In this document: positions 5,750 to 64,000 of the stretch, one piece after another
Numbering within the stretch: position 1 is the stretch's first letter
How the letters are laid out: each line of letters starts with the position of its first letter
Assembly (NCBI RefSeq): GCF_028641065.1
Contig: NC_073394.1
Location: forward strand, 11,656,001-11,720,000
DNA length: 64,000 nt
Source: Leucoraja erinacea
Lineage: Eukaryota
Reading direction: 5' to 3'
Made by a program: the position numbers and the translations under genes
Notes under the pieces: generated by a model
The model's input: the letters and a program-made list of their open reading frames with translations, nothing else
Databases searched by the model: none
Told to the model about the DNA's origin: nothing

Positions 5750-6910
5750 TTGTGTTCCAGGGAGGCCATCCCAGAAGGCACGTAAGTGAGGATGCTCTTC
5801 ATTGACTATAGCTCTGCATTCAATACGGTCATCCTCACCAAGCTCACCACCAAATTCCACCAGCTAGGCCTCAGCTCGCCGATATGTGATTGGATCCTGA
5901 ACTTTCTGACAGAGCGACCGTAGGCAGTGAGACTGGGCCCTCACCTGTCCTCCACTATCACCCCGAGCACTGGCACACCACAGGGCTGTGTACTAAGCCC
6001 CATGCTCCACTCCCTCTTCACTCAAGACTGTGTTCCTGCATTCGACACCAACACCATCGTGAAGTTTGCAGATGACACAACAGTGATTGGGCTGATCACC
6101 AACGGTGATGAAACAAAATACAGAGCGGAGGTGCAGAACCTGGCGGACTGGTGCACACGTAACAACTTGTCACTAAACACCTCCAAGACCAAGGAGCTGA
6201 TTATTGACTTCAGGAGGTCCCATAATGGAGAATACGCCCCAATCTCCATTTACAGGGAAAGTGTGGAGAGAGTGTCCAGCTTTAAGTTTCTGGGCACTCA
6301 CATTTCAGAGGACCTCACATGGTCCACCAACACCGCTGCGCTGGTCAAGAAGGCACAGCAACGACTGTTCTTCCTGAGGACATTAAAAAAGACTGGTCTG
6401 CCCCAACAGCTGCTGACAACGTTCTACTGCTGCACCGCAGAGGGCATATTAACGTATGGCATCTCTGTGTGGTATCTCAGCTGCACGGAGGCGGAGAGAA
6501 GAGCTCTTCAGCGCGTCGTCCACAGAGCGCAGAGGATTATTGGGACACAGCTACCAGCCTTGGAGGGCATCTACCACACACGGTGCCTCAGGAAGGCCGT
6601 CAGCATCCATAAAGACTCCTCACACCCTTGTAACGGACTGTTCAAACTACTTCCCTCCGGCAGACGTTACAAGGCCTTCTACGCCCGAACCTCCAGACTC
6701 AGAAACAGCTTTATTCCCAGAGCTATAGCGGCTCTGAACCGGCCCTGCTGAGTGCCCCCCATCCCCCCTGGACTGTCTCCCTCGGATGGTCACGTCACAC
6801 AGCTTATTTATTTATTTTACTTTTCTTTTACATCGGTTGGAAGCTGCATACTAAATCTCGTTGCACTAATGTGCAATGACAATAAAATATATTATTATTA
6901 TTATTATTAA
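5750..6910 (+). mobile_element. Rex1/Babar-clade LINE, 5'-truncated; RT C-terminal ORF 5927-6751 with (TAT)n tail
   Basis: Motifs [54 protein letters not shown]; AATAAA and (TAT)n at ~6881-6910. Confidence 0.92.
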
Positions 6911-7145
6911 TATCCAATCTCTCATTGTAACCACAGCCCTCCATTCATAACAACATCCTGGTAAACCACCTGCACTCTTTCTAGTATTCCAACATATTTT
7001 CTATAGTTCAGCAACCAGAACTGCACACTATACTCTGTGTGGCCTAACCAAGGCCTTTCAACATAATGTACCAGTGATTGAGTACAAGAGTATAATAGGA
7101 CCATTGCCCATGATGACAAACAATCTTTTCCCTGAAGATAGACAC

Positions 7146-7612
7146 AAAAGAGTGCAGCGTAGGTTAACAATTCCTGGGATGGCGGGACTGTCATATGCTG
7201 TGAGAATGGAGCGGCTGGGCCTGTATCCTCTGGAGTTTAGAAGGATGAGAGGGTATCTTATTGAAACATATAAGATTATTAAGCGTTTGGACATGCTTGA
7301 GGCAGGAAACATGTTCCCGATGTTGGGGGAGTCCAGAACCAGGGGCCACTGTTTAAAAAATAGGGGTAAGCCAGTTAGAACAGAGATGAGGAAACACTTT
7401 TTCAGAGTTGTGAGTCTGTGGAATTCTCTGCCTCAGAGAGCGGTGGAGGCCGGTTCTCTGGATACTTTCAAGAGAGAGCTAGATAGGCTCTTGTAGATAG
7501 CGGAGAGAAGGCAGGAGCGGGGTACTGATTGGGGATGATCAGCCATGATCACATTGAACTTTCGGTGCTGGCTCAATGGACCGAATGGCCTACTCCTGCA
7601 CCTATTGCCTAT
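7146..7612 (+). mobile_element. CR1/HER1 LINE 3' fragment
   Basis: Translation RVQRRLT..GLSY..RLGLYPLEFRRMRG.LIETYKI...LWNSLP; conserved 3' tail. Confidence 0.88.
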
Positions 7613-9590: not shown

Positions 9591-10849
9591 TTTAATGCTG
9601 TTTATCAACATGAGGACTAAACGTTATGCAAATGAAAGTCAAATAAGCCATTATGAGACTGTAAAACAAGAATAAAACATCAACCAAACCTTAGGCTTAC
9701 CAAAATAAACTGTTTGGAACATCATTAAGAGGCAAGAGGGCACTGGTGAGCTTACTAATCACAAAGGGACTGGCAGGCCAAGGAAGACCTCCACAGCTGA
9801 TGACAAACACCTGTCCGACAGATCATAAAGATTCTTCAGGAGTCAGGTATGGATTTGTCAATCACCACTGTCCACAGAATACTTAATAAACAGAAATACA
9901 GAGGCTACATTGCAAGATGCAAACCACTGATCGCAAAAAAAGATGGCTAGGTTACAGCTTATCAAGAAGTACTTAAAAGAGCAACCACAGTTCTGGTAAA
10001 AGGTCTTGTGGACAGATGAGACGAAGATTAACTTATATATAGAGTGATGGCAAGAACAATGTATGGAGGAGAGAAGGAACTGCCCAAGATCCAAAGCATA
10101 CCACCTCATCTGTGAAACACGGTGGTGGGGGTGTTATGACCTGGGCATGTATGGCTGCTGATGGTACTGGCTCACTTATCTTCATTGATGATACAACTGC
10201 TGATGGTACTAGCATAATGAATTCTGAAGTGTATAGACACATCTTATCTGCTCAAGTTCAAACAAATGCCTCAAAGCTCATTGGCCGGCGGTTCATTCTA
10301 CAGCAAGACAATGATCCCAAACATAGTGCTAAAGCAACAAAGGAGTTTTTCAAGGTTAAAAAATGGTCAATTCTTGAGTGGCCAAGTCAATCACCTGATC
10401 TGAACCCAATTGAGCATGCCTTTTATAGGCTGAAGAGAAAACTGAAGTGGACTAGCCCACAAAACAAGCATAAGCTAAAGATGGCTGCAAGGCCTGGCAG
10501 AGCATCACCAGAGAAGACCAGCAACAGGCGATGTCCATGAATCGCAGAATTCAAGCAGTCATTGCATGCAAAGGATATGCAACAAAATACTAAACATGAC
10601 TACTTACATTTACATGACATTGCTGTGTATCAAACATTATGTGCCCTGAAGTTGGGGGACTATGTATAAACACTGTTGTAATTTGTACATGGTGAAACTA
10701 AAATGTATAAAAATGGCCTTTATTAAAATCTGACAATGTGCACTTTAACTACATGTGATTTTTTTTTCTATTACAAATCTCATATTGTGGAGTACAGAGG
10801 CAAATAAATAAATGATGGGTCTTTGTCCCAAACATTACGGAGGGCACTG
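9591..10849 (+). mobile_element. Second Tc1-like transposon (different family), 5'-deleted, frameshifted DD34E transposase
   Basis: WTDETKI, KHGGGGVMTWACMAA, QQDNDPKH, WPSQSPDLNPIEH; terminus ...GGAGGGCACTG|TA at 10849-10851; inner DR at ~10631. Confidence 0.9.
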
Positions 10850-47039: not shown

Positions 47040-47215
47040 GGGTTTAAGAAGCCAGCAGAGGCATTTCTGAATCCACGGAGCTGGTACACATGTCAGGTTG
47101 ACGGACAGGCTAATCTGACACCCACACTACACTTTAGATGCGATCAGTGCTTTTAAAAATCTCGCCAGCAACACCAACGCCCCATATATAAACCCCACTA
47201 CCCCTCACCCCCACA
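47040..47215 (+). promoter_or_regulatory. Gene A core promoter with TATA box
   Basis: TATATAAA at 47185-47192 in non-repetitive sequence upstream of the inferred exon 1. Confidence 0.65.
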
Positions 47216-47303
47216 AACAAGTGCTTCGGGCAAACCGAGCAAGTTATTCCAGCAGCCAACACAAGCAAAGAGTTTTGTCAACTCTCTCAACACTTTGATC
47301 TGG
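47215..47303 (+). other. PTH: Gene A non-coding exon 1 (5' UTR); TSS approximate
   Basis: Starts ~25-30 nt downstream of TATATAAA (47185-47192) and ends at consensus donor G|GTGAGT (47304-47309). PTH genes have a non-coding first exon. Confidence 0.7.
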
Positions 47304-47988
47304 GTGAGTGCTGCTCACATTGTTGTAACGGCGCGCACGTTTAATGGGTCTGGGCTCAATGTAGAAATTCTAGGGCGTTTGATGTCTTGAGTAGAACACC
47401 GAGATTTGTCCTTAATCTTCTGGGCTCCGTTCTTAAGAAATGAAACCTCCCGTTTAGTTAAACTCTGTGTGGCAATGTTAAGTCAACTCGTTCAGCGAAG
47501 CCGATGAATTGAAGAAGGGTCCCGGCCCGAAACATCGCCTGTCCATGTTCTCCAGAGATGCTGCCTGACCCGCTGAGTTACTCTAGAATTCTGTGTCTTT
47601 ATTTCCCGGTGTAATTTGTGCAAGCAGATCGTTTCATTGGGACTCGACTTAACTGGATTTGACACGGTGTCCTCTGATTAGATACCCCAATCTCTATTAA
47701 ATGGGTTGTTTTGTTGTAGTGATTGATTTTAGACAAAAATGCTGGAGAAACTCAGCGGGTGAGGCAACATCTATGAAGAGAAGGAATAGGCGACGTTTCG
47801 GGTTGAGGAACCCTTCCTCAGGGTTCTTTAATGGCGAGGAAGGGTCTCGACCCGACTTCTCTCTATAGATGCTGCCTCGGCCGCTGAGTTTCTCCAGTAT
47901 TTTTGTCTACCTTCGATTTTTTTTCCCAGCATCTGCAGTTCTTTCTTAAATAGTGATTGATTTTGATCGATTTTTATTTACAGTCTCA

Positions 47989-48080
47989 ATGGGCTCGCTC
48001 GGAATTCGCTCCCAATCTCAGGGGTTGATCGTTCTCTGCACCCTCTGTACCGCTTTGCTATCGGAGAGTCGGCCAATAAG
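47989..48080 (+). CDS. PTH: Parathyroid hormone family gene A, coding exon 1 of 2 (gene exon 2): signal and pro peptide MGSLGIRSQSQGLIVLCTLCTALLSESRPI(R)
   Basis: Acceptor tttttatttacAG ends at 47983, ATG follows 5 nt later at 47989 (same spacing as mammalian PTH exon 2), hydrophobic core LIVLCTLCTALL, donor AG|GTGAT at 48081. Phase-2 intron joins in frame to the 49752 exon to give PI-R-R-SVSE. Confidence 0.9.
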
Positions 48081-48799
48081 GTGATAAATCGTCGAACTAG
48101 AAATGTTTCGTTTACGCATAGTCAGTCTGATCGGCCAATCATCTGCATAATGTCTTGTTTTTTTGTGTGTTCAAGAATGTCTTGTTTTGAGATATGTTTG
48201 TGTCATATTGATGTATTTGTTCAGGCTGCAGGCAGTATTTGACTTATTTTCAGAATAATATCCATCTGTCTTGTTTTGAGATATGTCTCAATATATTTGT
48301 ACACTTTCAATATCCTTGCTTAAGATGCCTATTTGCTTTATTTTCAGAATTACTTCTAAGATTATATTTATCTTAGTTTGAGACATGCACTGATTTTTAA
48401 ATTTGTTTTAGTTGTGCCGAAGATCTCTGTATTCATCTTACTTTCAAATCTGTGTTTAATGACATTTGGTGTATAAAATGTAGAGATTGAAGGAGATGCA
48501 TGTGAACCTCTGTCTCACCTGAAGGGGCTGCTGGGGTCTTTGGGTGGATGTGAGGGACGAGGTATAGGGACAAATGCTATCTGACTCGTGAAATTCCTTC
48601 AGAACATTTTTTTAATTTGCTCAAGATTCCGGCATCTGCAGCCTCTCATGTCTGCTTGAGATCAGGTTATCGTCAGTATTGCTTATGGCCGCCGTGGGGT
48701 TTCTTGTTTGCAAATTGTCTGCGCGCTTCTAGTATTGGAAAAGAGAACACACTGTCAAGCTAAAAACGAAATACATGGGGAAGCTCTGAGGTAGAGAAA

Positions 48800-49700
48800 G
48801 GGGCTTGTGGCAACACAGATAGAGTGGTAAAGAAGGCATATGGTATGCTCGCCTTCATCGGGTGGAACCTTGAGTATAAGAGACACAAAGTCATAATGCA
48901 GCTTTTCAGGACTTTGGTTACGTTTACTTTGGATTACTGCCTGCAGTTCTGGTCGCCCCATTACAGGAAGGGTGTGGAGACTTCCGAGAAGATGCAAGAA
49001 GTTTATCAAAATGCTGCCTGAACTAGGGGACATTAACTACAAGGAGACATTGGATAAACCTGGATTGTTTTCTCTAGAGCGTCAGAGGTTGAGGAAAGAC
49101 CTGATAGACGTATATACAATTCTGAGAGTCATAGATAGGGTAGACAGTCAGAACCTTTTCCCCCAGGGTGAAGATGTCAAAGACTAAAGTGCATAGATTT
49201 AAGGAAAAATGGGCAAAGGTTAAAGGATATTCCAAAGACTTGGCTTAGGTAAAATTGTAAATTGTCCCTGTGGTGCAGGGGAATGCTAGTTTACGGGGTG
49301 ACCGCTCGTTGGCGCGGCCTGTTTCACGCTGTATCTCTCAAGTCTAAAAGCCTAAAGATATGTGTGGGACACGCCTAAAGATATGTGTGGGACACGTTTT
49401 AGTACACAGAGATTGGTGGGTGCCTGAAACACGATGGTGGAAGCAGAAAAGCTAGTGGTGTTCATAAGTTATGGGAGCAGCGTTAGTCCATTCGGCAAGA
49501 TCAAGTCTACTCCGTTATTCAATCACAGCTGATCCATGATTCTCTCTCAACCCCATTCTCCTGCCTTTGCCCCATAACTCCTGACACCCGCACTAATCAA
49601 TGGAGGGATTTGGATCATGTATGAGCAGATGGGATTAGTTTAACTTTGCATCATGCTCAGCCCCGATATTGTATTCCTGTGTTATATTTTTTGCTATGTT
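48800..49700 (+). mobile_element. Nested CR1/SINE fragments in intron 2 of gene A
   Basis: VKKAYGMLAFI...LDYCLQFWSPHYRK; SINE tail at ~49240-49350. Confidence 0.75.
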
Positions 49701-49751
49701 CTAATGTACTTCCAGTGCGATTGAGCTATTCCAATCTTGTTTTTCCTCCAG

Positions 49752-50082
49752 GAGGTCGGTGAGTGAGATGCAACTGATGCACGATATGGGGAGGCATCTG
49801 TACGATAGTAAGAGGCAAGAGCTGATTAAAGATGTGGTAAGAGATGTCCACACAGCCAGCGAGAAGCATATCACCCCTTACACCGAGTCTCTGAGCCCTA
49901 AACACCCTCGCTCGTGCAAGCTCTCACCCGCGGTGAGAAGGCAACAGAGCAGGGCAAAGAGCAGGAGGCCGAGGAACAGCGAGAAAGAGGGAATCAAGAG
50001 CGTGAGTGCTGACGACTTCTCGGACATGGGAACACCGCAAGATCTCGACAGTCTTCCAAAGACTCCTGACGATATTGCCTGA
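49752..50082 (+). CDS. PTH: Parathyroid hormone family gene A, coding exon 2 of 2 (gene exon 3): dibasic RR plus 108-aa mature peptide SVSEMQLMHDMGRHLYDSKRQELIKDVVRDVHTA...PDDIA
   Basis: Polypyrimidine acceptor cttgtttttcctccAG ends at 49751. The N-terminus SVSEMQLMH..G..L....R...........VH matches the PTH(1-34) signature. TGA stop ends at 50082. Confidence 0.93.
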
Positions 50083-50270
50083 AGATCTTGTTCATAATTT
50101 CCCTGATTTGAACAAGATAGATTGCTGCTATATTCCTTTGATTTCAATACTCATTTGAAAACTAAATGTAAGCTAAAAGCGATCAATGCCCAAAGTATTA
50201 GGGATGGAGAAGCAATGTGGTTAAATCTAAAAAAAGCCCTCTAAAATAACAACGGCAATTTGATTTGGGT

Positions 50271-50276
50271 AATAAA
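50271..50276 (+). terminator. Candidate polyadenylation signal of gene A
   Basis: First AATAAA ~190 nt after the stop. Alternative distal AATAAA at 52932 and 53691 in AT-rich unique sequence. Confidence 0.45.
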
Positions 50277-50780
50277 TGTTGACCTTTCCAGCAAAGCCCA
50301 GATCCTTAAAAATGAATAAGTCAAATGAGTGTCCTTTTATTTCAAGATTTGTGTTCACTTTGCATGAAGGGTATATTATAAAACCAATGTCAGCTTCTTT
50401 TAACTGTTGATACTAAAGTTGCCACGCAAATTTGGCATCACGTCCACTCTTTGCACAGAACATGGCAAGCAAATCACCTTATCCCAGTGAGATGAGATGC
50501 AACAACAACCTGCATCGACATTGCACCAAGCACAGAGCAAAGAGTGGCAAAACCATAACTCAATGGGGGGGAAACCTCTTACCTTTGGCCACAAAGGTGC
50601 CTCCTTCAGTTTACTGTAAGATCTGGTGGTTAGATCGTAGATATATATTATTTTGTAAAACACTGGTGTAGTTTTAAAATATATTTGGCTTTTCTTCTAC
50701 ACGCTTTGGGTTAGAAATGAAGGGGAGATGAACCCTTATTATGCCATTAACATTAATTATGATACAAAATGCTGGAGTTA

Positions 50781-51122
50781 TGGGTCTGTCCCACTTACGC
50801 AACTTTTTCAGTGACTGCCGGCACCCATCATAGGTCATTGCAGGTCGACGAAAATGTTCAACATGTTGAAAATCCAGCGGTGACCAGAAAGACGCTACGA
50901 CTCTTTGGGCGGCTGAGGAGACGACTCATGACCATACAGGCAACACCCTGGTGTCATGTCGCGGGGGTGAAGCCTGTACGGTCGTGAGTAATCGCACAAA
51001 GAGTTGTACCTTGTTCTGGTCGCCGCTGGATTTTCAACATGTTTAACATTTTCGGCGACCTGCAACGACCTATGACGGGTGTCGGTAGTTGCCGAAAAAG
51101 TTGCGCAAGTGGGACTGACCCA
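50781..51122. mobile_element. PIF/Harbinger-type MITE (342 bp, near-palindromic) inserted in a Penelope-derived repeat
   Basis: ~110-bp TIRs TGGGTCTGTCCCACTTACGCAACTTTTT / AAAAAGTTGCGCAAGTGGGACTGACCCA; flanked by TTA and TAA, splitting the host ggagTAActcag. Confidence 0.85.
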
Positions 51123-51475
51123 TAACTCAGTGGGTCAGGCAGGATCTCTGGGAAAAAATAGATAGGTGACGTTTCAGTCTGAAGAAGGGTCCCGACCTGA
51201 AACGTCACCTGTCCATTTTCTCCAGAGATCCAACCTGACCCGCTGATTTACTCCAGTATTTTGAGTCTATCTTTGGTTAAAACCTGTATCTGCAGTTCCT
51301 TTGTTGTTGCGTTATAACACAGTATGTTTTAATTTAAGTTCTTTGTTTCAATTTTAGTAACAAATATCCAATTGTCAACAAGTAACACCTCCAAAAACAA
51401 ATATCAAATTTTGCCAAGCATAATTTCATTAAACACATTCATTCGTTAATAAGTTGCACTGCCTTTCAAGACTTA

Positions 51476-51866
51476 AGGGCCTGTCTCACTTAGAAGACCT
51501 AAACAGCAACCTCTGGTGACCTTGCCCACCACCAAAGGTTTCCATGAGGTCACCGGAGGTTTTGGTCACTCTCCCTAATGGTTGAAAGTGGTTTCCGCGT
51601 GATCGAGACTTCATCTAGGTTGCTGTTATTTTTTCATCATGATTAAAGCCGGCCTCGACTAAAAATAGGTCACCGTTTAAAAAATTGATCATTTTTTAGT
51701 CGCATTTCTAGTCGAAGCCGGTTTTCAAACATAGTCGAGGAAGGTTTTCAACATATGCGTGGGAGGTGGTAGGAGGTTGCAGGTCACCTTGACCGTGAAT
51801 TTTTTTTGAGTGGCGGGCAAGGTCACCAGAGGTTGCTGTTTAGGTCTCCTAAGTGGGACAGGCCCT
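51476..51866. mobile_element. PIF/Harbinger-type MITE (391 bp)
   Basis: TIRs AGGGCCTGTCTCACTTAG...GGTGACCTTGCCC / GGGCAAGGTCACC...CTAAGTGGGACAGGCCCT; TTA TSD on both sides. Confidence 0.88.
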
Positions 51867-54800
51867 TTACACGCTAGGTATTCATCACCAGATCTTACAA
51901 TAATTAGTCTATGCCGTTTTTTGGCCAAAATGCTTAACTGAAGAGCTATCTTGGGTCATGTAAAAGATCCCACAGCACAGTGTTGGTGCCCAATGATGAT
52001 TTCCCCAGCATTCTAGACCAATATTGGAGCCTCAATGAACAACTTATTTGGTTGTCCATGAGGAGAGATGGAAGAGGGTTTTCATTCAGGGGAGAGATTA
52101 GAGAAACTTGGCTTGTTTTCCCCAAGGTGAATGAGGCTGAGGTGAGACCTGATGGTCGTATTTAAGATTACGAGAGGGTAGTGCAAAGAACTGAAGAAGG
52201 GTCCCAACCCAAAATGTCCTGAAGAAGGGTCCTGACCCAAAACATCACCTATCTATGATCTCCAAGGATGCTGCCTGACCTGCTATGTTACCCCAGCATT
52301 TTGTGTCTTTCGTAGTCTAAATCTATTTTTACATGGCAGTGGTATCAAAAACAAAAAGGCATAGGTTTAAGATGAGAGGAAGACGTTTTAAAGGGGATCC
52401 TGAAGGGACAGTTAATGTTATGCAGAGTGGTTGGTTGATATCTGGTACAGGACCCATTTGATAATATGATCATATGACTCTATCTACAAAACAATATCAC
52501 AAATCTCAAATTATTTGCTGCTTATGAGAGCTTGCTATACATGAAGATGTTGAACCAGTGACCACTTAAAATGAGCTTCATTGTCTATTGGGTGTTTGAG
52601 AATCTTGAGGAGGAAAGCACTGTTGCAAGTAAACATCTTTTGTTCAATTGGTTCAGTGATGTTCTTCAAGGGAAGGATATCCAGTCAGCCATCTGTGTGC
52701 TTTCTCATTCCACACTGATGCAGCTGACTATTAGGAATCTGTTCCCTCACTCGATCCAGCAAGCCACTCGAGGATGATTTACAAAAAGACACCTCTTTTC
52801 CAGCAGCACCTGGAGGTGGTGTAATAACACTAGCCTTACTGTGGCACTGAAGTACAAAACACAAGAAGAATTCTCTCTGTGTGTTGTGAATGCAGCTTTA
52901 GAGTTGACACTTTATAGAATCTTTATTGTAAAATAAAAGTAATGTATTTTCCTTTAGTATAAGGTGCATATTTATTCTTTGTAATTTATGTTTCGCATAA
53001 TTTATAACTTTGTAAAAATGCACTTTTCGTATGATATGGTTGCACCAAGATTATTTGTGTGATTAAGACATTCTCTTGTTATGCAATTCTCTGCTGAATC
53101 TCACGCAGGGGCCACATACGTTGTAACGACAGACTCATCTCCAATTGTGGGTGATGTGAGACTGAGTCTCCTTTGACCGAGGTATAACCTCCGTAGAGAC
53201 ATCAGTAAATTGGAGTCACAGATCTTATGATGTGACCTTGTCAGCAGGAACCCTGGCACAGAGACCAACATCCACAGTGCGACCATTACTGGGCAGAAAA
53301 CCCACAGGGGACACGTTGACATCTGATGCCAAGTTTCTTGTCAAGTGCCCCCATGGCCTTTGCTAGGGTTTGCCAAGCCATAAAGCCTTCCTTTCATGTG
53401 GAAATTCAAAAGTATTACTCCCTGCCAGAAATACTAATGCATAGCCCGAGATGTTTTTAAAACTTAGAGGTTATTTACTTTTCCATGAACTGTAACCTTT
53501 ACAAGATGATGCTCTCTGTTGAACAAGACTGTTCCTCTCATTATATTGCTCAGCAAAATCTTTCTCACTCACATCTTCCAAGTTATTGAGCGGAGAAGGT
53601 TTTACAGGGTTACATTTGAAATAGCACAACTTGGCATTTTTTCAATGCTTCCATGAATTAGTTAATTGCTGGTAAAATTTATTTTGGCTCAATAAAGTTG
53701 GGAAGATTCTTGTCTCCGAAATGACATGTTTCTTTTTCCTTATTTCAAGTCAACACGTCAACGTTGCCGTCAAACAACCGTAACAGCATATGCTGAATGT
53801 CTGAATGAGAAACAGAAAAAAAAACTGGAAACACTCGGGTGGTCAGGCAGCATCTATGGAGAGAGGGAGTAAATAGTTCAATAGTACTTTATTATCACAT
53901 ATACCCAAGTACAGTGACATTCTTTGCGTACAGTTCAGTAAGAATCTTACTACACATACATAAATACAAAAGTGTGGGAATGATAGATAACACTGAGGTG
54001 AACACAAGAGTCACCGTTTCCTGCACCATTTTCAGTCCGAGAACCTTCATCAGAAAACAAGGTACTGGAGGAACTCAGTGGTTCAGGCAACATCTATGGA
54101 GGGTAAAGGACAGATGACGTTTTGGGTCAGGGCACATCACCCGTCTGAAGAAGGATCCTGACCTGAAATCGGCAGAGACATTGTCGGCTGAAGGACCTGT
54201 TACCGGGCAGTCAAGGTCAAAACACATCTCTCCTTTTCCCTTCACTGAAGCTGCCTGACCCACTGAATTCCTCCAACTGTTTACTTTTTACTCAAGATTC
54301 CAGCATCTGCCATCTCCCGTGTCACCGTTTATCAGAACCCTCACCTGCCAAAAGGTTTTGGACCTGAAACATGAACTCAGTTTCTCTCTCCACATACGCT
54401 GCCTGACCTGATGAGTATTTCCAGCATTTCCTTTTCCATCGACATTCCACATCAAGTTTCATTTTGCAGCGTGTGGCACTGATACTTCACAGAATCAGCA
54501 GTTTGGTTTCAATCCTGACCTCCGGTGCTCTCTGTGTGGAGTTTGCATGTTCTCCCTGAGACACCGTGGATGTCCCCCATGTGCTGCAGTTTCCTCGTAC
54601 ATCACAAAGACGTGTGCGTCAGTAAGTTATGTATCCATGGTAAATCATCCTTTGTGTAGATGGGTGTTAGGAGAAGAGTAGAGAAAATAGTGGAGGGAAA
54701 TAAATGGGGGAATGGGGTTGCACTGTGAGCCAGCATATAGTCAGTGGGCCAAATGGCCTTCTATATCAGGAGGAAAATGTGTCAACCACAGTTGAGTTGA

Positions 54801-55299
54801 GTAATCTCACTCTTGTCATTTGCTCCTACATCAGGGTTGTTCTCAGGTTATGATAGGGTTCTGTTATGGACATCTTTCCTTTGCCCTAATGCTTAGCAAC
54901 CCGGAAATGTGGTCATGAACCAAGTTCCCACCTGGCTGAAGATGTCTACAGCCTAATAGCATCTGGAAAATCCCTCCCGCCCATCTCCCAAACACTTGCT
55001 TATATATCCAGGTTGTACAAAAATCTGCCTTCTGTAACCTGGGGAGGACTTGTAACACACCTCCGACTTCCTCCGATCACTGTAAATCCATAGTAGTCTG
55101 GGTTGAAAGTCAACAGCCAATTTATCTAGAGTGAGCTTTGCTTCTATTTCTTTCACAGGGCATTGAAGGTCACCGCTGCTCACTGCTAAATCTCTGAACC
55201 CTCATGATTTCTCACCGTTGCTCTTTCTCTGAAAAGGGAATCTATTTAGTAATCTGAGGGAATCCAAGTATTATTGGAAAAGTCATATTTATCGTTCAT

Positions 55300-56365
55300 C
55301 CCTAATTACATGGAATGAGCTGCCAGAGGACGCCATGGAAGCAGATACAATTCCATTCTTCAAAATACATTTGGACAGGTACTGTATATGGATAGGAAGA
55401 GTCTAGGGGGCTATGGGCCAAATGCAGGCAAATGGGACTAGCTTGTTAGAACGCTAAACTAGAACGCTAACTTGGTGGGCATGGACAATTCTTGATGATG
55501 ATAGTGGTATATATAGGGCAGATAGTCAGAACCTTTTTCCCAGGGTGGAAATGTCAAAGACTTAAAGGGATATGTTTAAGGTGAGAGGGGGAAAAGTTTA
55601 AAAGAAATGTGCAGGCCAAGTCTTTTTTCACAGAGAGAATGGTGGGCGCCTGGAATCTGCTGTCAGGGGTGATGGTGGAGGCAGATATGATAGTGGCTTT
55701 TAGATAGGTTCTTGGATATGCAGGGAATGGGGGGATATGGATCACATGGAGGCAGAGGGGATTTGTTTATTTTAGTATCATGTTCGGCAGAGACATTGTC
55801 AGCTGAAGGACCTGTTACCAGGCAGTCAAGAAGGTCAAAATGCAGCTTTATAGGACTTCAGATGGGCTGCATTTGGAATATTGTGTGCAGTTCTGGTCCT
55901 CCCATTATGGATGGAAAGGATGTATAGGCTTTGGAGAGGACGAAGAAGAGGTTTACCAGAATGCTGCCTTGATTCGAGGATTATTACCTGTAAGGATAGG
56001 TTGGACAAACCATACAGAACTACAATAAAATAAAGTGATGAGAAGCATAGCTAGGGTAAATAGACTTTGTTTCCCAGTGTCAAAATATCAAGAACTAGAG
56101 GGGACATAGCTTTAAGGTGAGAGGTGCAAAAGTTAAAGGAGATGTGCGGGGAAGTTTTTAAAACAGAGAGAGGTGGGTGCCTGGAATGCGCTGCCATGGG
56201 TGGCGGTGGAGGCAGATATAATGCTGTCATTTTGGAGGCTTTTGAATAGACACATGGACATGCAGAGAATGGAAGGAATGGGATCACATGCAGCAAAGGA
56301 GATTAGTTTAACTTGGCATGGACATTGTGGGCCGAAGGGCCGGTCCCTGTGCTGTACTGTTCTAT
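55300..56365 (+). mobile_element. Cluster of CR1 LINE 3' fragments upstream of the gene B promoter
   Basis: Repeated CR1 3' ends (LEYCVQFWS..., gcctggaatgcgctgcca...). Confidence 0.7.
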
Positions 56366-56739
56366 TGGTCCTAAATTACAAGGTTCTCTTTGGATGTATC
56401 AGTACAAATTGAAATAAATAACATGAATTCTTTTTTCACTGACGGACCTTTAGTTGAATCTCTGCTGTGACTCACGCTGAGGTACTGCAATTTGGCTGAA
56501 TACTTCATCTCTGCACTGTGAGAACTCTTGTACATCAGTAACCCTGGAGAAACTAACTGGCCTCTGTAAATCAGGCACGCTCTTTTTCTGTGGGATACAT
56601 CCCAACCACACACGTTTCCAATGTAATCGACCTTTTTGTTAACTGTTAAAAGTAATGCACTCAACAGCTTATACTTCGGCCAAAGGAATAAGGAACGAAA
56701 AACCTACCGATCTTTGAACAATACCACAACCTTAAACTA

Positions 56740-56983
56740 AAAAGTCAATGTCAAGGGTCATTGTTGTAAATCTACATTGTGAAAGGACTGATGTCATCGC
56801 TTCACTTCTAGTTCAGAAACTCGGAGCAATTGGGAATTACTTCCCTCTGCTCCGTCCCATATTCAGGGACTTTGCGTCTTGCCTCTTGGGAAGACATCAC
56901 TCTGACATCAGCTCGAACAAAAAGAATGTTGATGCATGGGTTCCAAACCTCTTATATAAGGGAGCTGTTTTCACATCAAGATG
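56740..56983 (+). promoter_or_regulatory. Gene B promoter: TATA box, CRE-like TGACATCA at about -80, second inverted copy, nuclear-receptor half-sites
   Basis: TATATAAG 56953-56960, TGACATCA 56903-56910, TGATGTCA 56789-56796, AAGTCA-ATGTCA-A-GGGTCA ending at 56760. Confidence 0.65.
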
Positions 56984-57081
56984 CACCAACACAATTGCCA
57001 GCAGTGGGCAAATCGAAAAGTAGCTGCAGGAGCTCTTCCGAAGTTGGACTTGAAGCCTGCGAAACGAATTTTGAGGAATCG
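56983..57081 (+). other. Gene B non-coding exon 1 (5' UTR); TSS approximate
   Basis: Downstream of TATATAAG (56953-56960) and ends at perfect donor G|GTAAGT (57082-57087). Intron 1 is ~3 kb, to 60084. Confidence 0.72.
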
Positions 57082-57204
57082 GTAAGTGACTGTACTTATG
57101 TGGTGGAAAGTTGGGCGTTTGAGATCACTGTCACTGATTGATGAAAGAGCACCAAAGGTGTCGCTGGAAGCTGACATTTTATCCAGTGCATGCTTTGCGA
57201 TAGA

Positions 57205-57800
57205 GAGACAACGAACTGCAGATGCTGCAACCCTGAGCAAAACACAAACTGCTGGAGGAACCCAGTGGGTCAGGCAGTATCTGTGGTGGGAACGGATTAG
57301 CAACGTTTCGGGTCGGGAACCTTCTTCAGACTGATCTTCAGTTTGGGTAGCCCACAACCGAATGATATGAACATTGAATTCTCCAATTTGAAGTAATACC
57401 TCCGCATCCCTTCTCTCTATCTTTTGCTCACCTTCACCATGGCACGCACCCATTTCCCCCACTATTTCGCCCCTTTTCCCCCTTCCACTGTCCACTTTCC
57501 ACGTATCACTCCGTATGGCTTTTTACATTTCACCACTCTTTTCTCCACATCTGGCAACTTTTTGTCTCCTCTTTATCTCTGTCACTATCTTCAGCCATCT
57601 GCCAACCAACCCCCTCCCCACACTTGCATCCATTATCACTTGCAGGCTTTGTACTGCTCCCACCTCATTTTTCCAGATTTCGTTTCTCACTCTAATCAGT
57701 CTGAAGAAGGTTCCCCACCTCAAAACATCGCCTGCCCATTCCACCCACAGACGCAGTCTGACCCCGTTACATTACTCCAGCATTTTGTGTTTTGCTCATA
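57205..57800 (+). mobile_element. Penelope-like element fragment with inverted terminal repeat, in intron 1 of gene B
   Basis: + strand ~57337-57392 encodes FSLGSPQPNDMNIEFSNL (GIY-YIG C-terminus); inverted repeat at 57205-57335; hammerhead-like core ctgaagaagg...caaaacatc at ~57701. Confidence 0.7.
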
Positions 57801-57829
57801 CTTTGTGATGCCGCGGTCTAGCCTCTGAA

Positions 57830-58770
57830 CTGGTCTGGGTTCGATACCCACAGTTGATATATATATTGCCAAACCTGGTGGGCAGATTGATAGGGTACTG
57901 AGAGTAACTAAACTCTAGGAGATGCTGTCTTTCTGATGAGATGTGAAACCAATACCACACATTATCTGCGGACAGTTGACATGTGCATTAAGAAGCATTT
58001 GTAATTACTGCATGATGCAAGATTATCTAATACATATCTGCATTGATCCCTCCACAATGAAGATATACTGATGAAGAGCAGGTGGATACTTCATTTTCCC
58101 TAAATATTCATTAATCCTCAATTACTATCAATGAAATTGAAGAGAAGATTTACAAAGTTATTGCCATAACTCAAGGGTCTGAGCTATAAGGTTGGGCAGG
58201 TGAGGATTTTATTCCTTGATTTGCAAGAGGTTGAGGGGAGATTATATAGAGGTATACAAAATCATGTGGAATAAATAAGATGTCTTATTCATGAGGGAGG
58301 GGAATCAAAAGGGAATGGATTGAAGGTAGGATTGGAAAAAATTAATAAGAACCTGAGGGCAACTCTTCACACAGAGGATAAACAGATAGAACTAGCTGCC
58401 AGAAGAATTATTTGTAGGTATAATTCCAACATATAAACAGACATTTAGACAAGTACATTCATAGGAATGGTTTATAAAGATATGATCCAAATGCAGGACA
58501 ATGGGACTAGCTTTAATGGGGCATTGTAGTCAGCATGGACGAGTTGGGCCAAAAGGCCTGCTTCTGTCGTATATGACTCTGTGTCTATGAAACACATTTT
58601 CTGGCCATTGTCTCATAGCTTTTGGGATCTTGCAGTGTACAAATGGGATCCCTGTGTTTCGTCATCACAGCAGTAAGATAATGTGCGTTACAAAGCCATT
58701 TAGTATATCTTGTAGTTGTGATGAGGTTCAACAGAAATGCAAGTCCTTGATGCAAAGTGAATAGCAATAG
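57830..58770 (+). mobile_element. Deu-domain SINE relic interrupted by a CR1 fragment (58135-58585)
   Basis: gtactgagag...gctgtctttctgatgagatgtgaaacc...gaagagcagg; resumes after the CR1 piece with gggatcttgcagtgtacaaat...gttgtga...aatgcaagtc. Confidence 0.5.
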
Positions 58771-60087
58771 AAGTTAAAAGTATTTGCCATCACGTTTGGC
58801 ACGGACATCGTGGGCTGAAGGGACAGTTCCTGTGCTTAACTGTTCTATGCTCTACGCTACATGAAAAGAAACTATTAATATAACAAGTTGCTGCAATTTG
58901 GAAGGTGAAGCCTGAAAGGGTAAAATAAAGCAAATTCAGCCAAGGTTTATTGAGGGAAGGACCCAAAGTGCTGGAGTAACTCAGCAGATCAGGCAGCTTC
59001 TCTTAAGAACATGGATAAGTGACATTTTGGGCCGGGACCCTTCTTCAGACTGTCTAGCGGATGAATACTTGAATGGGGTTTTCAGGGATTCAAGAGTGAA
59101 GAATGTTTAATTGTCATCGGCATTGTAACTGGGACAATTAAATTCTTATTTGCTACGGCTTTACAGGCCCCTTAATGCAATAGCACAACAGATAAATATA
59201 CATTATTCAATAACACAATCAATTATCAGCGATACTAGGTAACTTGACCATAACAGTACAAACCGATGTAGTGCAACCTAACAAAAGTCCACAGTAGCTC
59301 GTTGCAGAGGTAGGGCTATGGTTAGGGTTGTGCAGGGTGGTTCAACAGTCTGACGGTTGATGTGAAGATACTGTTCTTATACCTGGAGGTCAAGGGTTTC
59401 AGGCCCCTCTACTTCTTCCGGATGGTAGCAGTGAGACGAAAGCGCGGCCAGGGTGGTGTGGGTCATTGATAATGTTTGAGGTGGCACTTCCTGTAGATCC
59501 CTTCGACGGTGGGGAGGTCAGATCCTATAATAGACTGTGCAATGTCCACCACTTTCTGCAGCCTCCTTCATTTCTCGGCATTTGAGTGACTAGGTTAGGC
59601 AATGATACAACCATTAGAATAAAAGGACGTACCTTTAGAAAGGAGATGAGGAGGAATTTCTTTAGTCAGAGGGTGATGAATTTGTGGAATTCATTACCAC
59701 AGGCGGCTGTGGAGGCCAAGTCATTGGGTATTTTTAAAGTGGAGATTGACAGGTTATTGATTAGCAAAGGTGTCAAAGGTTACAGGGAGCAGGCAAGAGA
59801 ATGTAGTTGAGGGGGAAAAATAGATCAGCCATGAAGGAATAGCAGAGTAGACTCGATGGGCCGAATGGCTTAATTCTGCTCCAATGACATGAACATATAA
59901 ACGGTATGTTCTCCATTAAACACCTGTAGAAGCTTAATGGAGTATCCAGCAACATGCTGAAATTGAGACAAACTGGATAGGTCTAAGAGAGAGCTGGCAT
60001 GGGCTTGATGGGCTGAAAGTCGGTAATAATTGTATGATCTGTAACCTGTCACTAAATGGTAATTCTTTGCTTTGTTAATTGCAGAGA

Positions 60088-60176
60088 ATGGTTTCCTTAA
60101 ACCTGGCACAAGTTGGAATTGTCGTCATCTTTTGCAGCATGTCGTGGCTGCTACCCTGTGAGGGCAATCCCAGAGG
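60088..60176 (+). CDS. Parathyroid hormone family gene B (PTH/PTHrP/PTH4-like paralog), coding exon 1 of 2: signal and pro peptide MVSLNLAQVGIVVIFCSMSWLLPCEGNPR(G)
   Basis: Acceptor tttgttaattgcAG ends at 60084, ATG at 60088, hydrophobic core VGIVVIFCSMSWLL, C-E-G signal-cleavage motif, donor GG|GTAAT at 60177. Phase-2 intron of 81 bp. Confidence 0.9.
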
Positions 60177-60257
60177 GTAATTCACCAGATATACAAGTAT
60201 ATTACAAGGATATTAGAACGGTCAGAGCTTGTATAATTAACCATCTTCTCTCTGCAG

Positions 60258-60564
60258 GAGGAGAACGGTGAGCGAACATCAGGAGATGCATGACAGGGGC
60301 CGCTTTCTGCAAGACTGGAAGAGGATGCAGTGGCTTGAGAAGATCATGGAGAGTTTGCACACGGCTGTTGAAGTCCTTCCTAATGACGCAGCTGCAGAAA
60401 ATCTACCGGGACAGAGGGAACCATCTGCACTTCCCCATACCCCCGGATATAGGGAAGGAATCGCCAGTAGCCACCAAGACCTCGAACTAGGAGGTGCTCT
60501 TGCTGGTGACCTCGAGGAAGCTGAGAAGGCAGCGAGCGTGGATCTTTCTGATCTTCAGAGTTGA
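60258..60564 (+). CDS. Parathyroid hormone family gene B, coding exon 2 of 2: RR plus 99-aa mature peptide TVSEHQEMHDRGRFLQDWKRMQWLEKIMESLHTA...DLQS
   Basis: Acceptor cttctctctgcAG ends at 60257. Splicing gives the furin site R-G-R-R before TVSEHQxMHDRG. PTH/PTHrP signature residues V2 S3 E4 Q6 M8 H9 G12 R20 W23 L24 H32 are present. Confidence 0.93.
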
Positions 60565-60565
60565 C

Positions 60566-60690
60566 CATAGTGTCATACAGCACAGAAACAGGCTCTTCGG
60601 CTTAACTTCCATTCAGACCAAGATGCCCCATCCAAGCGTTCCATTTGCCGGCGTTTGACCCATACCCTTCTAAACCTTTCCTATCTAACT
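60566..60690 (-). mobile_element. Antisense CR1 3'-tail fragment starting immediately after the gene B stop codon
   Basis: catagtgtcatacagcacagaaacaggctcttcgg is the reverse complement of the CR1 tail seen elsewhere in the window. Confidence 0.7.
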
Positions 60691-60824
60691 AACATTCAGT
60701 ACAATCAATTTTGAGGATCTACGAGTTGTATAGTGATCCTGACACTGTCTGATCCCAAATAATACCGACTGTTCCCTCTTATATACCAACTTATTTAATG
60801 GGGAACTTAAGTCACACATTTCCA

Positions 60825-61185
60825 TTTTATCCTCTTCTTCTCCTCCCCCTCCTGTCCTCTTCCATCCATATCCCTCCCTCCAGCTTTATTCCTCCTCATC
60901 TCTCCTTATCTGACACATTTTGTCTCCTTTTTACCTCTATCCTTTGTCACTTACTCCACCCATCGGCCAATCAAACCTCCCTCACCTGTATCCACCTATC
61001 ACTTGCCAAGCTTTGTCCTGCCTCCATCTCTCTTTTCCAGCTTTCTCCCCACTACGTCAAGAGTGTCCGGACCCAAAACGTCGCCTTCCCATTCTCTCCA
61101 CAGAAGTTGTCTGACCCACAAAGTTCCTCCAGCACTTTGTGTTTTGCTTAAGATTCCGGCACCTGCACTTTCTTATTTCTCCAAG
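60825..61185 (+). mobile_element. Penelope-derived 3' region in the gene B 3' flank or UTR
   Basis: Pyrimidine-rich body and gacccaaaacgtc...ttcctccagcactttgt terminus shared with other copies. Confidence 0.55.
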
Positions 61186-61260
61186 TACTTAACGTTACTA
61201 CTTACTCTATTTAATAATATTTTAACCAAACATTGGCAATCTTACATATATATTTCCTGA

Positions 61261-61386
61261 AATAAATACTAGCTGAGATATATTTATTGTTATTTATATA
61301 ATTTATTTTTGAGATTCAATTTCTCATTTGTTTTTAAATGTGTGTATTGTTCACAAGTCCTGATGCTATCAAAAAATAAAAATAAA
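61261..61386 (+). terminator. Candidate poly(A) signals and AU-rich 3' UTR segment of gene B
   Basis: AATAAA at 61261 and ~61375-61386; several ATTTA motifs at 61281-61310. Confidence 0.4.
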
Positions 61387-63739
61387 AATCTTGACGATTG
61401 CTTATATTACTTTCTGATTCAGAATATTGATGAGAAGGAAATAATATGTACTAATAAGATCATAACTAATCCTGCATCTCATCCACATTACCAATCTAAT
61501 CCCCATATCACACAATGCTTGTGGAGTAACTCACTCTATTAAGCAAACACAACATGGCAACACTGTGGCAGACCAACTTTAAATGTGCGCATTGGGACAT
61601 GGATAGACTAAATAGGAATGAAACTTTTCCCTTTGCACAAGGTCTAAAACAAAGGGCATAAATATGTAGCAGAATTAGAGGGGAAATTAGGACAAATTTT
61701 TCCAGGGATGCTCTCTGACCAGCTGAGTTACTCCAGCACTTTTTGTCCATCCTTGGTAAACCGGCATCTGCAGTTCCTTGTTTCTACAAACCTTTCCATC
61801 CATAAGTGCAACTCATTGTCTAAATGTGATTGTTAGACCGCGTGGGCTCGATGGGCCCAAGGGCCAGCTTCCATGCCGTATCTTTCAATCCAATTCAAAC
61901 AAAATATGGCGGTCTACAGTTTATGTGATTTAAGGTTCATGAGGCCATGAATGTAGTTAAACACGGGAGATGGTTTAGAAAGATCTGCTGTTCAAGACAA
62001 GGTGTTTGTGTGTCATCAGTGACCTCTTCTGGTGATGCTTGGAATCGAACTTGAAGCAGCCAGTTCCAAAGTGTCCTGGCCGGGGAGAAATTATTTCCTC
62101 CGGTATTGGGAGTCCAGAACAAGAGATATGGTAGTAGTAGAGATAGAGGCACCCCTTCACAAAGAGCTTAAATATCTCAAGCTTTCTTCTCAAAAAGAAG
62201 TTGACCTGTGGTGTCAATTAACAATGTTGAACATACGTTCATAAATTTTTAGACTGGCATGGCTATTGAAAGTTGCAAATTCAATCAGGACTAATGCACA
62301 ACTGTGATCTAATTGAATAAATGACTATGCTTTGAGTGAGCTGTTCCCATGTTCTAGACAAAAATGATTATACTGGTATACTGTTCCGAAGTCACAATTC
62401 ACAAAAAAACATTGTTGAAAACATGGCAATTTTTTTGAGTTGTCAAAGTGCTGAAGCAACTCTGTGGGTCAGGCAGCGGCTTTGGAGGACATTGATAGGC
62501 AACGTTTCGGGTCAGGACCCTTCTTCAGACTGAGTCCCTCCAGCATTTGGTGCTTTGCTCAAGATTCTAGCATCTGTAGTTCCTAGTGTCTCGTCTGGAA
62601 AACTTTTCGTAAGCAAGGTCTATTATTTTCAGCTTTATTATTGTTCAGTGATGAAACCCAATATGGGCTTTCATCTTCAAAATGGAGTGGCTGATTCTCC
62701 AAACCGCTGAGAGTGTTCTCCGTTCTGACGCCGGAGCTCCGGTCAGCCCGGCTGGAAGGCCCCGAACAAAGAGGAAGAGGACTGAAATTTATTGCCTTCC
62801 CTCACAGTGGGGAAACGTTGATTCTGCGGTGTGGGCATCTTCATTTTAAATTCTATCGTGTATTGTATTCTTTTTATTCGTATGTCTGTATGGTAATTCA
62901 AATCTCACTGTACCAATTGGTGCATGTGATAATAAATGTCTCTTGAACTCTTGCCCTCTTCTCACTGCTACCCTTGGGCAAGACTTGGGTAGAAGTCTGA
63001 AGTCCCACACCACCAGGTTCAGGAACAGCTACTTTCCAATAACCATCAGGTTCGTGAACTGATCCATGCAATCCTAATCATACCGTGACAACGGAACACC
63101 ACCTTGCATTACCACGGCCTAATTTTTCCTTTTGTATTTTGCACTGTCTTGTATCTTTACACAGTCTTGTTTCTTTCAGAAATGTTAGGCCTAAATATTG
63201 TATAATTTGTTGCTGTGTGTTGTCTGAGTCCATGTGCCTGTGATATTGCTGACGATTTCAGTTGTACCCGCACCTCACCGGACTGGTAAACATGACAGTG
63301 AATTTAATTTTATTCCAGACTGGAGATCAATGGCAGGTTCTGGAAGTCTTCAATTAAACAGACATTTAACAAGTCAGTATCTATGGAGAGAGAATGTTTT
63401 AATATTGCAGTTACAGCCTTATATCACAACTGCTTCAAGCTTTTGTTTTGGTTCTGCATGATATTGGATGTTTTATATTTAGTGAAGTGTTTTTGTTTAT
63501 TATGTTATCTATTGAGTTCTGTGTTCACAAACCTGTTGTTGTGCTGCTTCAAGTATGAATGGCCAAGTAGTGTCTGAAGAAGGTTCTCGACCCGAAATGT
63601 CACCTGTTCATGTCCGCCCAGCTGAGTTACTCCAGCACTTTGCGTCCTTTTGTCTAAGAATGTCATTGTTCCGATTCAGTACATCTGATAATTAAATACT
63701 CTTGACACATAGATTGCTGAATTCAACATTCAGACCCAG

Positions 63740-64000
63740 TGACGGCAACAGACAATAGATGGCACTGGAAGGAGCTGGCAGCGCAGAGTGCGCAGGCGTA
63801 AGTGCTGGCAGCCGGCAGCCGATAGAGGAAAGTGCGCAGGCGTGAGTGCCGGTAACCGGCCGCCGATTAAGGAGAGTGCGCATGCGTGCGTGCCGGCAGC
63901 CGCCAGTGGAGAGTCCGCGGGCGCAAGCGCCGGCAGTCGGCAGCGGAGTCTGCGCGGTAGCGAGAGGCATCAGCCAGCAGATGAATATGCGCAGGCGCGC
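63740..64000 (+). promoter_or_regulatory. Start of a CpG-island promoter containing a ~44-bp tandem repeat of NRF1 motifs
   Basis: TGCGCAGGCGT at 63789 and 63833, TGCGCATGCGT at 63877, TGCGCAGGCGC at 63988; high CpG density. Confidence 0.7.

Follow-up and report, generated by a model that had tools for sequence, protein, structure and literature searches.

PTH-family genes in jawed vertebrates

In the standard model, vertebrates have four ohnologues of the parathyroid hormone (PTH) family, the elephant-shark Pth1 represents the ancestral PTH, and humans carry one PTH gene at the place that corresponds to the locus described below. Pth1 of Callorhinchus milii (ADJ21810; P0012) is treated as the chimaera PTH homologue in its published account (PMC3483286). 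The PTH1 lineage has been defined by three exons, the last two of which code the prepro-peptide (PMC4354418), and ARNTL and BTBD10 are published neighbours of PTH (PMC3009671). PTH of bony vertebrates (PTH1) is single copy per locus in published maps. Teleosts have two PTH1-type genes per genome, pth1a and pth1b, but these were produced by the genome duplication of teleosts and sit on separate chromosomes. The skate Leucoraja erinacea, in contrast, has two intact PTH-type genes, here called A and B, which stand in tandem on the same strand of NC_073394.1 between FAR and BTBD10/BMAL1, in the 64,000-nucleotide stretch of DNA that was analysed (the window).

Two intact genes at the PTH1 locus

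The exon boundaries of both genes (Table 1) had been proposed by a sequence-only reading of the window, and every splice site is canonical GT/AG. The spliced frames encode 140 aa for A (stop at 50082) and 131 aa for B (stop at 60564), each with a prepro part of 32 residues. Further features given in that reading were reproduced: the ATG lies 5 nt (A) or 3 nt (B) into exon 2, the second intron is in phase 2 directly 5' of the dibasic site, and the 1-34 regions of A and B are identical at 16/34 residues. Both genes fit the three-exon plan with the prepro-peptide encoded by the last two exons, and both share this plan, the locus and the propeptide type with bony PTH. Their products match the Pfam Parathyroid family (PF01279) above its 22-bit cut-off (A, 45.2 bits, E = 1.7e-11; B, 50.4 bits, E = 4.1e-13), and each precursor has a hydrophobic signal-peptide core and RR at -2/-1, with predicted cleavage. 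DNA similarity between the A and B regions is confined to short pieces of up to about 180 nt, read as dispersed repeats, and no third PTH copy was found within the 264 kb surrounding the pair.

Table 1. Features of the tandem pair and its surroundings (window positions, except those prefixed C18)
Feature	Position	Strand	Remarks
Gene A TATA box	47185..47192	+	Putative, from sequence
Gene A non-coding exon 1	47215..47303	+	Predicted, start approximate; free of ATG, GTGAGT donor follows 47303
Gene A exon 2	47984..48080	+	ATG 47989; signal peptide and propeptide; identical to P0001
Gene A exon 3	49752..50082	+	RR site; predicted 108-aa mature peptide with basic tail
Gene A residues 1-34	49756-49857		Met5, Met11, Leu23
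Gene A AATAAA	50271
Gene B TATA box	56953..56959	+	From sequence; ATG of the database model (56926) lies upstream of it
Gene B non-coding exon 1	56983..57081	+	GTAAGT donor; present in contigs of run X1, whose pieces imply the junction
Gene B exon 2	60085..60176	+	ATG 60088; signal peptide and PTH1-type propeptide
Gene B exon 3	60258..60564	+	Completes R-G-R-R site; predicted 99-aa mature peptide with acidic tail
Gene B residues 1-34	60265-60366		His5, Glu7, Arg11, Trp23
Gene B 3' UTR	to at least 61008
CpG island	18001..20000	.	Likely promoter of the FAR gene running away on the minus strand (role inferred)
CpG-rich stretch	63501..64000	.	Likely promoter of the downstream BTBD10-type gene (role inferred)
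FAR exons	C18:11591758-11636302	minus
BTB_3 exons (BTBD10-type gene)	C18:11765236-11771245	plus

The gene order is FAR, A, B, the BTB_3 gene, BMAL1 and TEAD, with the BMAL1 identity of the neighbour resting on 90.6 bits against 67.6 for BMAL2. The pair therefore sits at the PTH1 locus, beside BTBD10 and ARNTL/BMAL1, while the other skate ohnologues lie elsewhere (a PTHLH-type gene on C19, a Pth4-type gene on C24 and TIP39 on C1559). The same tandem is found in other rays and sharks. In a catshark, the chimeric model P0005 fuses exon 3 of A with exon 2 of B, the same order as in the skate, Amblyraja A and B have consecutive accessions on one contig, and S. canicula A and B are on contigs of identical size. 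The proposal of the sequence-only reading that an ancient tandem duplication took place at the cartilaginous-fish PTH locus is upheld. The window contains 6 copies of a GCM-type motif, where 7.1 are expected by chance, and none of them lies at the A or the B promoter.

The spliced A frame equals database protein P0001 in every letter, and A orthologues with open frames are present in four further species, Amblyraja, Hypanus, Pristiophorus and Scyliorhinus. All five A rows of the alignment have Met5, and skate and catshark A agree at 29/34 residues of the 1-34 region. Logan proteins P0170-P0172 have 104 aa, as A would if translated from its internal Met, and offer no splice evidence for A. For B, open frames occur in six further species, the skate-catshark identity is 24/34, and His5, rather than the hydrophobic residue of bony type, is present in all six rows. 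Transcription of B, spliced as predicted, is strongly indicated, and both of its junctions (57081/60085 and 60176/60258) are deduced from contigs of a probable RNA run (X1) that match in pieces, not from listed joints. The contig of this run begins at 56983, a position that serves only as a hint to the start of the gene. Database protein P0019 is recovered from the three exons of B. The 184 aa of the database model include a 53-residue N-terminal extension, likely an artefact: its start codon precedes the TATA box, and the Mobula and Callorhinchus records begin at the signal peptide. Since A and B both have database models, "misnamed" describes them better than the "likely under-annotated" of the earlier reading: skate B is called "parathyroid hormone 4", which is a misnaming, and one sawshark A is called "4-like". 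No description of the tandem pair was found in the literature searched, which had several key papers outside its reach.

Phylogenetic placement of A and B

Trees were built from 58 rows under two models, the second a mixture model, on a short alignment of 65 columns, with bootstrap values that run high. In these trees the A genes of sharks and rays form a clade of their own, joined with bony-vertebrate PTH (98/87; mixture model 96/85), B forms a clade with Callorhinchus Pth1 (99/90; 98/86), and A, B and PTH1 group together, apart from PTHLH and PTH4 (98/98; 98/99). B and Callorhinchus Pth1 are identical at 23/34 residues and have His5, Glu7, Arg11 and a PTH1-type propeptide in common. B is the counterpart of that gene and A an additional one, and Callorhinchus Pth1 itself is apparently the sister of PTH rather than PTH, with sharks and rays having a second gene, A, adjoining. 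Given a separate shark-and-ray A clade, B with Pth1 and Pth4 elsewhere, the skate carries, in addition to the four ohnologues, a fifth lineage of the PTH family.

With bony PTH, A shares an acidic residue 22 and hydrophobic residues at positions 5 and 11; it differs in its tail, which is longer and basic, and at position 23, where A has Leu and all 18 bony rows have Trp. Like Pth4/PTH-L, including Callorhinchus Pth2 (ADJ21811; P0034), B has His5, a basic residue 11 and a similar gene plan, whereas Pth4/PTH-L lies at another locus (C24, adjoining SRSF3), has an acidic propeptide and forms a separate clade. Residues 5, 10 and 11 of B are PTHrP-like, but B has neither the long basic tail of the skate PTHLH-type gene (C19) nor the longer propeptide. 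A 36-column tree put two frog Pth4-type rows inside the A+PTH1 group. Three frog entries (P0008, P0009, P0042) bear the name "parathyroid hormone" but have a Pth4-type prepro part, and were rejected as B orthologues. No gene B of a bony vertebrate occurs among 150 of the 199 listed representatives (not genomes). Gene A was not found among Callorhinchus proteins, in which a second match, P0168, is a mis-modelled Pth1, and the seven "parathyroid" matches in the elephant-shark genome supplement include no PTH entry.

Origin of the pair

We put at roughly two in three the probability that the pair arose by a single tandem duplication at the PTH1 locus before cartilaginous and bony fishes split, in which case A would be the likely orthologue of bony-vertebrate PTH, and B, the elephant-shark "Pth1", a likely sister gene lost in bony vertebrates. 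The deep date is favoured, not proven. One may argue that the duplication instead took place within cartilaginous fishes alone, or within sharks and rays, with both genes co-orthologous to PTH and A converging on it at residues 5 and 11. This possibility deserves some weight, as it requires no gene loss, a chimaera A was not found among proteins, and on average A is identical to B at 16.2/34 residues of the 1-34 region but to bony PTH at 14.5/34; moreover, AU tests reject neither A with B (p = 0.21), nor A with elasmobranch B, arising after the chimaera split (p = 0.15), nor A as the counterpart of Pth1 (p = 0.15), and they also leave B with PTH1 standing (p = 0.21). Still, it is clearly the less probable account: the best tree joins A with bony PTH under both models, two alignment columns at class level (5 and 11) favour A with PTH1 and none favours either alternative, and shark A shares 11 of its first 13 residues with sturgeon PTH. 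A weak signal in the tails agrees, in that 4/5 A tails beat their own shuffles against a bony-PTH tail profile (1-5 of 100 shuffles as high) and 0/6 B tails did (15-93 of 100); the reverse test ranked PTHLH first, and a search with a B-tail profile gave no informative match.

An even older tandem, predating jawed vertebrates, would make B the gene of this locus that is truly sister, by genome duplication, to PTHLH and Pth4, with PTH descending from the neighbouring copy. The 1-34 region of B is indeed nearer to PTH4 (16.5) and PTHLH (16.0) than to PTH1 (12.9), and a lamprey scaffold carrying two PTH-like genes linked to BTBD10 is described in PMC3483286; lamprey is represented in our tree by one sequence. 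AU tests reject B with PTHLH (p = 0.037) but not B with PTH4 (p = 0.24). Yet the resemblance of B to PTH4 and PTHLH concerns ancestral states, and the short PTH1-type propeptide and the grouping of B with A and PTH1 make this older date unlikely. The sequence-only reading had taken the pair for the elasmobranch Pth1/Pth2 cluster, and the database names, together with PTHrP-type peptides as the best solved-structure matches of B, might suggest Pth2 or Pth4. This is refuted here: Callorhinchus Pth2 groups with the C24 gene and shark and ray Pth4 (99/98; mixture model 89/82), AU tests reject a grouping with Pth2 for A (p = 0.004) and for elasmobranch B (p = 0.002), and the C24 Pth4 gene has SRSF3, which is not beside the window, at 49 kb and a BTB_3 gene at 57 kb. 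As for misassembly or a pseudogene, coding differences in related sequencing runs are only partly listed, but the shared gene order in the catshark, the frames kept open elsewhere, the conserved 1-34 regions and the spliced B transcript render either scarcely credible.

Predicted signalling and significance

If the pre-split duplication is correct, the last common ancestor of jawed vertebrates probably had five PTH-family genes rather than four, among them a tandem of a gene with a PTHrP-like His5/Arg11 head (B), later retained in cartilaginous fishes only, and a gene with hydrophobic residue 5 (A), from which the parathyroid hormone of bony vertebrates would derive; the long-signalling switch would have arisen through this tandem duplication, ahead of any parathyroid gland. 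The ancestral His5/Arg11 persist in B, whereas A has hydrophobic residues at both positions, as in bony PTH. Each precursor would shed its signal peptide and be cleaved at the end of the dibasic site; the 1-34 part of both peptides may activate PTH1R/PTH3R via cAMP. Residue 5 sets signal duration at the human PTH1R, according to two reports (PMC9586930; bioRxiv 2021.06.09.447485). By extension from human receptor work, A is predicted to signal longer and may reach PTH2R, and B, whose His5 is that of PTHrP, to signal more briefly, although Leu23 of A, and Arg11 and the unique Glu7 of B, may shift this behaviour. In that case a single locus would hold the residue-5 switch in both of its states.

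Should A be a real PTH orthologue, earlier conclusions on early PTH rest on a paralogue and several database names are wrong; with a five-gene ancestor, the "Pth1" of the chimaera, which has long served as the oldest PTH, would be a lost sister gene of PTH. The origin of an endocrine, long-acting PTH signal would also become testable. A and B are two natural peptides from one locus of one animal that differ at the residue governing signal duration and receptor choice in humans, and the invariant Glu7 of B and Leu23 of A are natural variants at receptor-contact positions.

Gene structure and annotation of the tandem pair

The two tandem same-strand PTH-type genes, A and downstream B, form a real and conserved pair and add a new lineage to a known hormone family, although their identity differs from that given in an earlier sequence-only reading of this DNA. 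The gene models of that reading held up: both genes lie where it had placed them, each of the four introns begins with GT and ends with AG, the start codon lies 5 nt (A) or 3 nt (B) inside exon 2, intron 2 is in phase 2 directly ahead of the dibasic site in both genes, and the identity of 16/34 residues between them was reproduced from the spliced frames, which encode 140 aa in A and 131 aa in B. Both score above the Pfam Parathyroid cut-off, and no third PTH copy came up in profile searches covering 264 kb around the window. The supposed under-annotation concerns names rather than models: A is identical to database protein P0001, named 'parathyroid hormone 1a [Leucoraja erinacea]', and P0019, named 'parathyroid hormone 4', is B plus a 53-residue extension that starts at an ATG upstream of B's TATA box. 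Naming across records is inconsistent, sawshark A being '4-like' and most other records 'parathyroid hormone-like'. The name 'parathyroid hormone 4' sits on B, although the skate Pth4 gene is on another contig (C24). Full-text literature searches found no account of such a tandem PTH pair in any cartilaginous fish; some key works and supplements outside that search may bear on novelty.

Probable transcription of gene B

Four of the 24 listed runs were compared with window 56900-61500, and one, X1, is guessed to be RNA. X1 covers the three exons of B, and its depth is zero in several intron bins that have coverage in the DNA-like runs (57824-58131, for example, is covered in all three). Of the 114 nt of one X1 contig, 64 lie on 60084-60147 and 50 elsewhere, and a contig of similar depth has variants 20 nt from 57081 and 4 nt from 60084. 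At the second junction, letter 59 of an 812-nt contig (depth 23.4) begins at 60257, and a contig of equal depth has a variant 11 nt from 60176. Both B junctions agree exactly with these values; they are inferred from contig pieces and do not appear among the joints listed. Over 730-850 nt of B exons 2-3, the three other runs show 5, 29 and 33 differences, with no coding indel among the differences listed. At 60497, where the window has C, all four runs have T, which turns an Ala of B's tail into Val, the residue that Amblyraja has too; the C is either an assembly base error or a private allele.

Relatives and orthology

A profile search gave a list of 150 out of 199 representatives. Relatives of B among the matches listed came from Amblyraja, Mobula, Narcine, two Scyliorhinus species and Callorhinchus, the last being the published Pth1. 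Relatives of A are known from Amblyraja, Hypanus, Pristiophorus and Scyliorhinus. The tandem is reflected in one catshark model that fuses A exon 3 to B exon 2, which indicates that this shark shares gene order and strand. Protein searches found no A in Callorhinchus, which is weak evidence of absence. All cores (1-34 regions) with Glu7, or with His, Gln or Tyr at residue 5 and a PTH1-type propeptide, are cartilaginous-fish B (7/7, from 171 cores with P0140 and P0168 excluded). Two frog proteins named 'parathyroid hormone', P0008 and P0009, carry two tandem 1-34-like peptides per precursor and a Pth4-type prepro part; residue 5 of the first repeat is hydrophobic in P0008.

Trees were built from 58 rows hand-picked from about 170 proteins, without the chimera P0005 and the near-copy P0155; 23 rows without a source name were assigned to groups by likeness, and three have no usable prepro part. 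B joins Callorhinchus Pth1 with support of 99/90 (65 columns) or 98/86 (mixture model), A joins bony PTH (98/87; 96/85), and A, B and bony PTH stand together (98/98; 98/99). The pair had been proposed to be Pth1 and Pth2, but the AU topology test rejects A or B as Pth2, and Callorhinchus Pth2 clusters with the C24 gene and shark and ray Pth4, in agreement with the available portions of PMC3483286 and PMC4354418. The same test rejects a skate-only duplication, as well as B grouping with PTHLH (p=0.037).

The pair is of interest mainly because the shark PTH orthologue likely has to be reassigned; we put the deep dating behind this at about two to one in favour, which is not settled. Pairing A with B, B with PTH1 or B with PTH4 is not rejected by AU (p 0.21-0.24), nor is an origin of A after the chimaera split (p=0.15). 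Columns 5 and 11 favour A with PTH1 and none favours the alternatives, and a bony-PTH tail profile weakly prefers A tails, the reverse test giving no clear result. Against A with PTH1 count the raw identity, in which A is nearer to B than to bony PTH, and the core-only tree, in which two frog rows are misplaced.

Locus and other family members

The window corresponds to C18:11656001-11720000. A FAR gene on the minus strand lies upstream of the pair, and downstream of B follow a BTB_3 gene at 49 kb, then BMAL1 and a TEAD gene. On C24, SRSF3 lies 49 kb from an intact family gene, which also has near it a second BTB_3 gene, ETS and TEAD genes, and a kinase that we take to be STK38-type. The published neighbours, in the part of PMC3009671 available, are ARNTL and BTBD10 for PTH and SFRS3 for PTH-L. 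The C24 locus is the Pth4 locus, and the two BTB_3 genes are named BTBD10 and KCTD20 from position. A PTHLH-type gene lies on C19 close to a second FAR, and TIP39 on C1559. Since the published family model, as available from PMC5640766, has four ohnologues, the tandem pair adds a fifth lineage.

Skate Pth4 is unusually diverged, with a long branch and only 13/34 residues identical to Callorhinchus Pth2. The TIP39 copies are inverted, 29 kb apart and 88% alike over 457 nt, with both mature-peptide frames open, and represent a recent duplication or an uncollapsed haplotype. A match on C30 has hydrophobic/basic residue spacing fitting the 1-34 helix, two cysteines, a possible upstream splice acceptor and no dibasic site within the exon; it may be either a chance match or a sixth member of the family, very diverged.

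Other features of the window and of the skate genome (G000).
Feature	Location	Strand	Remarks
Presumed LINE fragment	window 5924-6748		reverse-transcriptase-like
Presumed LINE fragment	window 6951-7493		reverse-transcriptase-like
Open frame	window 10043-10537		presumably resembles a Tc1/mariner transposase fragment
ATGCGGGT motif series	window 18598-18886		four motifs, 65-149 nt spacing, inside CpG island; likely local tandem repeat
Pth4 gene	C24:23291411-23291527 (L004)	minus	intact, 94 aa
TIP39 copy	C1559:95337-95453 (L007)	plus	
TIP39 copy	C1559:124750-124872 (L006)	minus	
Family candidate	C30:15452311-15452424 (L005:1501-1614)	minus	weak PF01279 match, E 0.48, below cut-off

Proposed action of the two hormones

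Precursors of the PTH family lose their signal peptide and propeptide before secretion, and the part that activates class B PTH receptors is residues 1-34. The A and B precursors would be processed and secreted likewise, with residues 1-34 acting on such receptors. The cAMP response of human PTH1R is prolonged with Ile5 and transient with His5, and Arg11 aids prolongation (PMC9586930, available portion); Ile5 favours PTH2R as well, and hydrophobic receptor contacts are made by residues 7 and 23 (bioRxiv 2021.06.09.447485, likewise). PTH is described as lost in hagfish in the portions available of PMC6361756/PMC10153176. A has Met5 and Leu23, and B has His5, Glu7, Arg11 and Trp23. By analogy with the human receptor work, A is predicted to be longer-acting and B briefer and PTHrP-like, with action that is probably local because there is no parathyroid gland.
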